16,327 nucleotides of DNA from a virus, in the UHGV virus genome UHGV-1634740; one strand, written 5' to 3'. The notes under the pieces are model-generated. The model made no database searches, was not told the DNA's origin, and worked only from the letters and a program-made list of their open reading frames with translations. Shown here in pieces: positions 6,313 through 16,327 of the stretch (the stretch's first letter is position 1; every line of letters starts with the position of its first letter). Made by a program: the position numbers and the translations under genes.

Positions 6313-6711
6313 TTATTGCATTCTGGCCAGGCCGCGCTCTGTCATTTCGGCTGCCACACCGGCAGAGACACGAAACGCCGTTCCCGGCAGCACAAATGCC
6401 ACAGGTTCATCCCGCGTGGCGTGAAGTGCATCAGTATGCAGCTTCACCAGTGCCACGACCGTGACCAGTTCAGACGTATCCAGAATCACGGTATCCGGCT
6501 GCGCTGATCCCACCTCATTTTCATGTCCGGTCAGCACATTTTCCCGGCTGAGAGGGGTGTCCTGACCGGCAGTTTCATCCGTGTCATCAAGCTCCTCTTC
6601 CAGCTCTGCCACACGGAGCGCCAGTTCTTCTTTCGTCCCCGTCAGGCTGACATCACGGTTCAGTTGTTCACCCAGCGAGCGGAGACGGGCAATCAGTTCA
6701 TCTTTCGTCAT
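6313..6711 (-). CDS. FI: DNA packaging protein FI, intact
   Basis: Start at the internal Met of track ORF 6313..6750: MTKDELIARLRSLGEQLNRDVSLTGTKEELALRVAELEEELDDTDETAGQDTPLSRENVLTGHENE... is full-length gpFI. Confidence 0.9.
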   Translation of the reverse strand: MTKDELIARLRSLGEQLNRDVSLTGTKEELALRVAELEEELDDTDETAGQDTPLSRENVLTGHENEVGSAQPDTVILDTSELVTVVALVKLHTDALHATRDEPVAFVLPGTAFRVSAGVAAEMTERGLARMQ

Positions 6712-8174: not shown

Positions 8175-9484
8175 TTATACCGGTAAAGCTTCAGGTGTAT
8201 TAAGTAATTCTTTATTGGTATCAGATGCCAGGTTACCTGCAGCCAGCGGTGCCGGTGCACCCTGCATCAGACGATCCAGCGCAGTGTCACTGCGCGCCTG
8301 TGCACTCTGTGGTGCTGCAGCCAGAATGCGGCGGGCCGTTTTCACGGTCATACCGGGGGTTTCTGCCAGCACGCGTGCCTGTTCTTCGCGTCCGTGAGCC
8401 TCCTCACAGTTGAGGATCCCCATAATGCGGCTGTTTTCTGCCGCAACCGCTGCGGTGATCTGCGCGTTCACGTCCGGCTGCGCCGCGCTGGCGTTTTCGC
8501 CCTCCGTCGCTGGCACCACGTCAGTAACGTCAGCCTGCGAAGCAGTGGCTGAAACAGTTGTTGATTGAGTCTCTTTGGTCATTCGCCCTCCTGAGAGACG
8601 GGATTTACGCGCATCCAGTGCATCACGCATGACGGTGATCGCATCGGTGCTGTTAACAAGTTCATCAGCCAGTCCGGCATCAATGGCCTCCTGACCGCTG
8701 TACACTGCAGCCTCGGTATCCAGCACAGCCTGCACAGACAGGCCGGTATATGCCGACACCTTCTGCGCAAACATCTGGCGGGTTGCGTCCATCCGGGACT
8801 GCAGTGTCTCCCGGACGTCATCCGGAAGATGGCTGTAGGGATTGCCATCCACCTTATGGCTGCCGCTGTAAATCAGCGTGATTTCCACACCCTGTTTCTC
8901 CAGGGCAGCACCGTAATTACTGTGAGCCATCATGACGCCGATGGAGCCTGTCCGGGCGGTCTGCGTGACCAGACGCCGGGAGGCGGCACTGGCAAGCAAC
9001 TGACCTGCACTGCAGTTCATGTCGTTGGCCAGCGCCCATACCGGTTTTATGTCACGCACACGGGCGATGATGTCAGCGCAGTCAAATGCCCCCGCCACCA
9101 TCCGCCGGGCGTGTCCATATCGAGCAGAATGCCGTCCACCATCGGATCGCTGGCAGCCTGTTGCAGACGGGCGATAATGCCGTTGTAACCGGTCATCCCC
9201 GAGTACGGCTGCAGCGCCCGCGTCCGGCTGACCAGCGTGCCGGACACCGGCAGCACGGCGATGCCGTTCATGACCTGATAACTGCGGGCCTGTCGTGTCC
9301 GTCATCATCACCGGATAATGCCAGCGTCGCGAGTGCCTCCTGGGCAGTCAGGCTGTCGCCGGACACCGCATCCGTCAGGCGGCTGATCCCAAGCTGGCCT
9401 GCAAGCGCACAAAAGAAAACCCGCGCATAGGCGGGTTCAAGCATCAGCGGCTCATTAAAGGCCATGCTGGCAATATGCGGGAGA

Positions 9485-9504: not shown

Positions 9505-13178
<3,674 letters not shown>

Positions 13179-14109: not shown

Positions 14110-14343
14110 ATGTCAACGAAGAACAGAACCCGCAGAACAACAACCCGCAACATCCGCTTTCCTAACCAAATGATTGAACAAATTAACATCGCTCTTGATC
14201 AAAAAGGGTCCGGGAATTTCTCAGCCTGGGTCATTGAAGCCTGCCGCCGAAGACTGTGCTCAGAAAAAAGAGTTTCGCCTGAAGCAAACAAAGAAAAGAG
14301 TGACATTACTGAATTGCTCAGAAAGCAGGTCAGACCAGATTGA
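14110..14343 (+). CDS. small basic protein, possibly a ribbon-helix-helix-like DNA-binding protein (tentatively YlcI/YnfO, DUF3950-like prophage protein)
   Basis: 77 aa ORF in an AT-rich segment on the strand opposite the phage late genes. Basic N-terminus (KNRTRRTTTRNIRF) followed by ...QINIALDQKGSGNFSAWVIEACRRRL, resembling Arc/CopG-type motifs. Family assignment is from memory and not verified. Confidence 0.5.
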   Translation: MSTKNRTRRTTTRNIRFPNQMIEQINIALDQKGSGNFSAWVIEACRRRLCSEKRVSPEANKEKSDITELLRKQVRPD

Positions 14344-14400: not shown

Positions 14401-14811
14401 ATGGCTCAGGTTGCCATTTTTAAACAAATATTCGATAAAGTGCGAAATAATTTAAACTATCACTGGTTTTATTCTGAACTAAAACGTCACAATGTCTCAC
14501 ATTACATTTACTATTTAGCCACAGAGAATATTCATCTTGTTCTTGAAAACGATAATACGGTTTTAATAAAAGGACAGAGTAAGGTTGTAAATGTAAGATT
14601 TTCAAAAAATAAATGCCTTATAGAAGCCACCTTAAAAGGATTCAAATCAGGAGAGTTATCATTTTACGAATACAGGAAAAATCTTGCTACAGCAGGGGTT
14701 TTCAGATGGATTACAAATATCCACGAAAACAAAAGGTATTACTATACCTTTGATAATTCATTACTCTTTACTGAGAACATTCAGAACACCACACAAATAT
14801 TTCCGCACTAA
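14401..14811 (+). CDS. hypothetical prophage accessory protein (tentatively DUF1398/YbcV-like); start 14386 or 14401
   Basis: Strongly AT-rich ORF with no overlap with phage structural genes: [59 protein letters not shown].... Its position between the lysis cassette and cos is typical for lambdoid accessory genes. Confidence 0.5.
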
Positions 14812-15127: not shown

Positions 15128-15301
15128 TAAATCCTGGTATTTGTAATGACTGGCTCTTATCTCAACGCAGCCCCTTACCGCGCGCAAAATGCTCAATATC
15201 AAGCATCAGCAATGAGATGTTTAATCTGGATTCACTCCAGAAGTGAGCACCACCCTGTCTACAGAGCCAGATGTGAAGGATGATGAGTAAAATTATCGCT
15301 A

Positions 15302-15768
15302 TCATCGAAGGCATTGCGTCCTGATGTATTCCTGAAGCGTTCTCAATGCTGTTTGGTCGCGGATAATTCCGTCCCGGATACCGAGAACGTTTCGTCCAGC
15401 AACTGGAGAGAGTTCGACGGTGGCATCATTGCCCATGCCGGAGGCGCTGGAGGTTTCGGCTGAGGATGGCACAGGCATTTTCCTTTGACGAGCACCCGAC
15501 CACCATTATCAAGCTTGCGCCGAAGAGCATCATTTTCAGCTTTCGCATCAGCTAACTCCTTCGTGTATTTATCATCGAGTGCATCAGCATCACGCTGGCG
15601 CTGCTGCATGTCAGTAATGGTGGCGTTCGCCTTCTCCAGTTCACTGGCCTTGTTATCGCGCTGTTCTTTGTAGGCGATTGCATTATCACGGTAATGATTA
15701 ACAGCCCATGACAGGCAGACGATGATGCAGATAACCAGAGCGGAGATAATCGCGGTTACTCTGCTCAT
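15302..15768 (-). CDS. Rz: i-spanin Rz; single frame break near 15480-15500 as sequenced
   Basis: N-terminus [83 protein letters not shown] has the Rz transmembrane anchor and coiled coil. After the break the Rz-like C-terminus (...[50 protein letters not shown] stop) continues in another frame and ends at 15302. Confidence 0.8.
15343..15547 (-). CDS. Rz1: o-spanin Rz1 embedded in Rz (+1 frame); broken by the same indel as Rz
   Basis: Embedded frame gives [22 protein letters not shown]... (signal peptide plus lipobox VVGC). The proline-rich part ...[18 protein letters not shown]...SATKQH stop is found in the frame that track ORF 15343..15768 ends in. Confidence 0.65.
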
Positions 15769-16239
15769 ACCTCAATCTCTCTGACCGTTCCGCCAGCTTC
15801 TTTGAATTTTGCAATCAGACTGTCAGCCTTATGCTCGAACTGACCATAACCAGCGCCCGGCAGTGAAGCCATATATTGCTGCAACGGTCGATAGCCTGAC
15901 GGATATCACCGCGATCAATCATCGGCAAAGCGCCACGCTCTTTAATCTGCTGCAGCGCTACAGCATCCTGACTTCTGGAGAAAAATCTTTCAGGCCAAGT
16001 TGCTTGCGGTAGGCATCCCACCAGCGTGAAAGAAGCTGGTAACGTCCAGCGGCTGTTGATTTGAGTTTCGGATTTAGCGTGACAAGTTTGCGGGGGTGAT
16101 CGGAGTAATCAGTGAACAGTTCGCCACCGACAATAACATCATAACCGTGATTTCTGGTTTTCTGCCGTCCGTTATCTGTTCCTTCTGACCATGCCACCAT
16201 ATCAAGGAAAGCTTTACGCTGGGAATTAAGTGTCTGCAT
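15765..16239 (-). CDS. R: endolysin R (lambda R-type transglycosylase); at least two frame breaks as sequenced
   Basis: ORF 15958..16239 reads [91 protein letters not shown] 15815..16021 continues ...[35 protein letters not shown]. Reconstructed stop overlaps the Rz ATG (ATGA at 15768-15765). Confidence 0.88.
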
Positions 16240-16242
16240 TAA

Positions 16243-16327
16243 TTACTCCTTATGGGCACCGAACTTGTTACCGATGACCCTCATTGCCGCACCACGAATA
16301 GCATCAACACCAATCAGCCACCCACCA
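16243..16327 (-). CDS. 3' end of a probable holin gene (S-like); 5' part lies beyond window end
   Basis: Open frame to the window edge ending ...GGWLIGVDAIRGAAMRVIGNKFGAHKE stop (TAA 16245-16243), immediately upstream of the R start, with AAGGAG as the R ribosome binding site. Only weak resemblance to the lambda S C-terminus; called from position. Confidence 0.45.
   Translation of the reverse strand, partial: GGWLIGVDAIRGAAMRVIGNKFGAHKE

Follow-up and report, generated by a model that had tools for sequence, protein, structure and literature searches.

An interrupted Rz/Rz1 spanin pair in a low-coverage lambdoid phage contig is an HK620-type allele, almost certainly broken by a homopolymer undercall

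The window analysed here (the whole stretch of DNA, 16,327 nucleotides) carries late-region genes of a lambda-like phage or prophage, in which an embedded Rz/Rz1 spanin pair is interrupted by the loss of one base. Judged from the assembled sequence, this frameshift is almost certainly a single-base undercall in a CCC homopolymer of a metagenome contig covered about twofold. We read it as a sequencing or assembly error because the k-mer coverage of the contig is approximately 2.2 and because some 30 homopolymer deletions are distributed along it. It is highly probable that the locus is a normal HK620-type, lambda-family two-component spanin with embedded genes, and that the apparent break is not a mutation of the phage. 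The pair itself is an already catalogued HK620-type allele in which nothing is novel.

The embedded spanin genes and the frameshift site

Both spanin genes lie on the minus strand (Table 1). The Rz-like frame begins at 15768 and the Rz1-like frame 220 nt further downstream, at 15548; since (15768-15548) mod 3 = 1, Rz1 is read in the +1 frame relative to Rz, as in lambda and as a sequence-only reading of the window had proposed. Rz1 is contained wholly within Rz, which is the layout of an embedded o-spanin and i-spanin, and the start codon of Rz overlaps the stop codon of the endolysin gene in the sequence ATGA (15768-15765). The two frames are not both intact in the record as given, where one base is missing at 15474-15475; as this break is attributed to a sequencing error, the claim of an embedded pair is lowered for the sequence record but not for the phage.

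The position of the break was defined by aligning 601 nt of the window (15200-15800) with the sequences of E. coli TL-14, phage Kati and HK620, and exactly one indel was found. On the coding strand the window reads TGCCTG at this place, whereas TL-14, Kati and HK620 all read TGCCCTG. The missing base is the only difference between the window and TL-14 over the 601 nt, and the Rz DNA is otherwise 100% identical to intact alleles. The alignment bears out the proposal that a single indel shifts Rz and Rz1 together, although the place first suggested for it, 15480-15500, was about 5-25 nt off. The accompanying description of both genes as broken is correct for the contig as assembled but, considering its coverage and its many homopolymer deletions, not for the phage.

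Three open reading frames result from the missing base. The longest, of 141 aa, had been described from the letters alone as a chimera of the Rz N-terminus and the Rz1 C-terminus, and this proved accurate: it shares a prefix of 98 aa with repaired Rz and a suffix of 43 aa with repaired Rz1, and Pfam places it in two families, PF03245 at profile positions 1-69 of 126 and PF06085 at 8-41 of 41. The 40-aa frame retains the signal peptide of Rz1 with its lipobox and, before running out of frame, 6 residues of the mature protein, and the 58-aa frame begins at a fortuitous ATG lying across the deletion site.

Table 1. Features of the lysis region and example deletion sites (window coordinates; a dot marks a feature without strand)
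Feature	Position	Strand	Remarks
Holin, C-terminal 27 residues	16243..16326	-	Cut by the contig end; matches EP91B WP_001120490.1
R endolysin (lambda R-type transglycosylase)	15765..16239	-	Three-frame translation gives three fragments covering the whole of lambda R
Rz, i-spanin (inner-membrane spanin subunit)	15302..15768	-	155 aa with the missing base restored
Rz1, o-spanin (outer-membrane lipoprotein spanin subunit)	15343..15548	-	68 aa when repaired
141-aa called ORF, artefactual chimera	15343..15768	-	Rz residues 1-98 plus Rz1 residues 26-68 (the last 43)
Rz1 N-terminal fragment ORF, 40 aa	15426..15548	-	First 25 aa are those of repaired Rz1
Rz C-terminal fragment ORF, 58 aa	15302..15478	-	Contains repaired Rz from residue 99 to its end (155)
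Frameshift site	15474..15475	.	GG in the window, GGG in relatives; Rz codon 99, Rz1 codon 26
50-aa conserved ORF	15162..15314	-	51/51 identical (stop counted) to WP_001139678.1; overlaps Rz by 13 nt
DUF1398 (YbcV-like) gene	14401-14811	+	Without indel
YlcI/YnfO-family gene	14110-14343	+	Without indel
Example one-base deletion sites (1)	3771, 3779, 4143, 4479, 4887, 4908, 5624, 5968, 6240		
Example one-base deletion sites (2)	7862, 7873, 9101, 9297, 10163, 10448, 10828, 11088, 12344		
Example one-base deletion sites (3)	12485, 12709, 13305, 13824, 15060, 15869, 15977		

The repaired proteins and their allele

Once the missing base is restored, both proteins match their spanin families from end to end. 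Repaired Rz covers profile positions 1-125 of 126 in PF03245 (E 3.8e-29; 101.9 bits against a cut-off of 25.4) and falls into phrog_13, 'Rz-like spanin', in PHROGs (E 1.2e-74); it is identical to WP_000092273.1 of strain CFSAN061771 at 156/156 positions, the stop being counted. Its transmembrane segment occupies residues 4-22 (the best 19-aa window, with a mean Kyte-Doolittle value of 2.63), and Cys98 and Cys153 are predicted to be periplasmic. Repaired Rz1 covers profile positions 1-41 of 41 in PF06085 (E 3.8e-21; 75 bits against a cut-off of 27.9) and matches phrog_3198, also annotated 'Rz-like spanin'. In NCBIfam, no model matched Rz, Rz1 or the 50-aa ORF that follows them.

That Rz1 is a lipoprotein, with a VVGC lipobox followed by a PPAPPAW segment, had been noticed at the outset, and the lipobox passes a careful pattern check on the repaired protein. 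Three of the first seven residues are K or R, a hydrophobic core follows, and the lipobox cysteine, Cys19, conforms to the consensus [LVI][ASTVI][GAS]C with a Ser, and not an Asp, at the +2 position, so that the PROSITE PS51257-type pattern is matched. Mature Rz1 has 8 Pro per 50 residues, including the segment PKPPAPPAW, and a further cysteine, Cys27. In 81 phage records, among them ST104 (gene 15/orf44), SPN9CC and mEp460, Rz1 reads through as one open frame, and the repaired protein is 97% identical to ST104 orf44.

The features of the lambda pair that are genetically important comprise the transmembrane segment, two coiled-coil regions, Rz C99 and C152, Rz1 C29 and the proline-rich region, and the periplasmic cysteines named form homodimer disulfides (PMC5295617). 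Cys98 and Cys153 of Rz and Cys27 of Rz1 align with these lambda cysteines. By homology to lambda, we infer that the lysis mechanism, the formation of the complex and the outer membrane's disruption would be the same here. Rz would be a type II inner-membrane protein whose transmembrane segment is N-terminal and whose periplasmic domain is helical, and Rz1, translated from the +1 frame within Rz, a short, proline-rich outer-membrane lipoprotein. As suggested by lambda Rz/Rz1 genetics, the two would be joined via their C-termini and so bridge the periplasm; after the removal of peptidoglycan by holin and endolysin, the complex could then fuse the inner and outer membranes and complete lysis.

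The pair has its closest known counterpart in HK620, whose Rz and Rz1 are identical to the repaired proteins at 143/155 and 66/68 positions, have the same lengths (155 and 68 aa) and the same embedded +1 layout, and directly follow the endolysin gene, as they do here. Architecture and structure are alike, and the differences amount to a handful of substitutions and the one base absent at 15474-15475. The HK620-type allele is also present in ST104/SE1, SPN9CC and mEp460, and in many E. coli prophages, where it is annotated as WP_000092273.1.

Lambda, the experimentally characterized prototype, shares the gene architecture, the Pfam families and the operon position. Its Rz is identical at 71/83 positions (86%) over residues 1-83, up to the motif ENDALR, but at only 25/73 (34%) over the remainder, the C-terminal 72 residues of Rz here, giving 96/156 overall; its Rz1 is identical at 28/70 positions, Rz1 here being 8 residues longer. 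The transmembrane segment, the lipobox and the periplasmic cysteines are kept, and so is the proline-rich motif, which reads PPAPP here and PPPPP in lambda. This distribution upholds the earlier impression of a Rz C-terminal half that is unlike lambda, within a mosaic lysis module. From the sequences compared, that half appears to be a different allele of the subunit-interaction region, an instance of catalogued lambdoid mosaicism.

A P22 gp15-type Rz C-terminus had been expected at first. The P22 gp15/Rz1 genes likewise encode a two-component spanin of the embedded kind within the late operon of a lambdoid phage, but only 80/156 positions of Rz and 20/72 of Rz1 are identical, which ruled out the P22 type; the pair is of the HK620/ST104 type instead. 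The allele is thus not that of P22, although numerous P22-like phages, ST104 and HK620 among them, carry it.

These assignments agree with the published classification of spanins, in which family membership requires an identity of 40% or more that extends over 40% or more of the periplasmic domain (Kongari et al., 2018; PMC6139136). In that study, the Rz proteins of HK620, ST104, SPN9CC and mEp460 belong to an 83-member 'Lambda' i-spanin family, the Rz1 partners of this family are divided over three o-spanin families (HK97, lambda and HK620), HK620 Rz1 is the representative of the 'HK620' o-spanin family, and P22 Rz1 belongs to the HK97 o-spanin family. Taken on full-length identities, the repaired pair reaches the threshold for the HK620 o-spanin family (Rz1, 66/68 to HK620) and for the Lambda i-spanin family (Rz, 96/156 to lambda and 143/155 to HK620). 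The spanin pair adds nothing new to lysis biology.

Origin of the frameshift

The window is a complete SPAdes contig deposited in ENA (ERZ504595, NODE_765_length_16327_cov_2.185802), and it is the only contig on record that encodes the exact 141-aa protein. A literature search on the accession ERZ504595, in which the sequencing platform was sought, returned no match.

Indels were counted along the window against two independent intact prophages, those of TL-14 and CFSAN061771. The comparison with TL-14 gave 29 one-base deletions and that with CFSAN061771 gave 27, with only 2 one-base insertions; because most of the deletions are common to both comparisons, they are specific to the window. Homopolymers of at least 2 contain 27/29 of the deletions (93%, against a background of 45% of bases; binomial P = 5e-8), and 16/29 lie in runs of at least 3 (background 16% of bases; P = 2e-6). 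Homopolymer deletions occur at about 1 per 500 nt across the contig (1-16327) and affect intergenic sites too (examples in Table 1). When the reference annotation was projected onto the window, 13/20 projected genes were frameshifted, including those for the terminase, portal, protease, tail tube and tape measure, and so was R. The genes fragmented by one-base deletions are A, B, C, D, W, FII, Z, V, G, T, H, Nu1 and R.

The substitutions present a different picture. After gap filling, no internal stop codon was found in the projected genes, and the substitutions remaining after repair give a pN/pS of 0.12. It follows that the sequence evolved as working genes and that the indels obey rules unlike those of the substitutions. 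In three sister metagenome contigs, of the same phage type and diverged to a similar extent, 7-13 kb contain 0-2 frame-breaking indels, whereas the window has 33. Two in-frame indels, in contrast to the one-base deletions, look like natural polymorphisms: an additional 3 nt (CAG) at 6481 in FI, relative to both references, and an additional 12 nt at 8180, at the 3' end of C, relative to TL-14 only.

Some local features of these comparisons were recorded separately. The 3' end of H, the tape-measure gene, shows a dense cluster of 5-7 small indels relative to both references within 140 nt (891-1030), which may reflect either a stretch of poor reads or a mosaic segment that diverges locally. At position 12660, the window and CFSAN061771 both have one G more than TL-14. 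TL-14 (NZ_CP109601.1) is the closest complete-genome relative, and its own terminase large subunit (L004, 11589-13513) is annotated as 'frameshifted'.

The deleted allele was not found outside the window in any collection searched. With a 71-nt query across the site, none of the 1,215 complete E. coli genomes bearing the segment matched at 99% identity or above, and among the matches listed the top E. coli ones were all 98.6% identical over 72 nt, which is the value that one gap produces. A 34-nt query containing the deleted junction had no exact match in IMG/VR and none among 241 million metagenome records, where the intact junction was found at least 120 times and 68 times, respectively.

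An undercall has to be weighed against the view that the one-base deletion is real and that the window derives from a decaying, defective lambdoid prophage, in which the spanin, endolysin, terminase, portal and tail genes would be true pseudogenes. Cryptic lambdoid prophages are common in E. coli, the relatives of the window bear DLP12-style gene names (nohD, rrrD, essD), frameshifts affect many genes across the contig, and the annotation of the TL-14 terminase fits such decay as well. It also counts against an artefact that homopolymer deletions at such a rate are unusual for Illumina data, that homopolymer contraction is a natural mutational bias too, and that defective prophages with frameshifted lysis genes exist. 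However, decay would be expected to leave nonsense substitutions, insertions, larger deletions, insertion-sequence elements and a relaxed pN/pS, whereas no stops were seen and selection on the substitutions is as given above. The ratio of deletions to insertions is 29:2 with the strong bias to homopolymers already described, the Rz DNA is otherwise the same as that of intact alleles, the deletion is common to no other genome or contig searched, the contig coverage is merely about 2.2 and the sister contigs are without such an indel excess. Prophage decay was rejected as the main explanation on the absence of nonsense codons after repair, the pN/pS of 0.12 and the nearly exclusive occurrence of the indels as homopolymer deletions, and we consider it improbable.

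A genuine 141-aa frame, arising either from a natural Rz-Rz1 fusion or from programmed frameshifting and yielding a single-chain spanin-like protein, is less probable still, to the point of being barely credible. The chimeric frame does remain open for 141 aa and keeps the Rz transmembrane segment, the first helical region and the Rz1 proline-rich region. But the fusion lacks conservation: the exact protein is encoded on a single contig, and no relative among the E. coli genomes, IMG/VR and the metagenomes carries the fused frame, so that a natural conserved fusion was rejected on a junction count of 0 in each collection against 1,215, at least 120 and 68 for the intact form. The chimera is also missing the C-terminal helical region of Rz, which in lambda is thought to contact Rz1; in lambda Rz, even the deletion of residues 151-152 abolishes lysis (PMC5295617). 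Because the Rz1 part starts at residue 26, past the lipobox, the lipoprotein signal is lost and the fusion would have no outer-membrane anchor. In the unimolecular spanins known so far, the lipobox is N-terminal and the transmembrane segment C-terminal (PMC6139136), a topology opposite to that of the chimera, which has the N-terminal Rz transmembrane segment and no in-frame lipobox and was thus not accepted as a unimolecular spanin of the T1 gp11 type. Similar one-base deletions, moreover, affect 13 other genes in which no such rationale applies. There is likewise only a very slight chance that the deletion was real in the sampled population, that is, that a lambdoid phage or prophage had Rz and Rz1 inactivated together and expressed the 141-aa protein. 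If true, this would be an experiment of nature in which lysis without spanins, or a tethered fusion motif, is put to the test.

With an undercall as the preferred reading, the break in Rz/Rz1 matters only as a quality flag on the contig and probably on the rest of the ERZ504595 assembly. Gene calls made from the contig, such as a 141-aa protein with both Phage_lysis and Rz1 Pfam domains, are then artefactual chimeras and not pseudogenes or new domain fusions, and every 'pseudogene' on it should be held suspect.

Neighbouring genes

On the minus strand, the holin fragment is followed by R and then by Rz/Rz1, which places the spanin genes in the position typical of a late lysis cassette, and the 50-aa ORF comes next. 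Beyond it are two plus-strand genes, of the DUF1398 and YlcI/YnfO families, and then Nu1, A, W, B, C, D, E and FI, followed by FII, Z, U, V, G, T, H and M.

The termini of the endolysin and the holin had been thought to differ from those of lambda, and they do. The endolysin begins with MQTLNSQ, where lambda has MVEINNQ, and its C-terminal REIEV also differs; its gene is split by two one-base deletions, at 15869/15870 (CCC to CC) and at 15976/15977, relative to TL-14, EP91B and lambda alike. The holin fragment, which ends in LIGVDAIRGAAMRVIGNKFGAHKE before its stop codon, corresponds to the C-terminal end of WP_001120490.1, a 'phage holin, lambda family' protein from a prophage of E. coli strain EP91B, and matches neither the lambda S sequence nor the TL-14 holin; it belongs to a divergent 'lambda family' holin. 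Like the Rz C-terminal half, these endolysin and holin differences are ordinary lambdoid mosaicism. Its frame is further disturbed by a 2-nt insertion at 16319-16320, near the contig end.

The 50-aa ORF lies directly downstream of Rz, and in relatives it belongs to this same late-operon module. It matches phrog_11822 (E 1.8e-36), a family with no assigned function. Its N-terminus is hydrophobic, and the product may be a small membrane protein connected with the lysis cassette. The YlcI/YnfO and DUF1398 genes, located on the opposite strand between Rz and Nu1, form an arrangement that resembles the DLP12 prophage; in lambda, this place is taken by bor.
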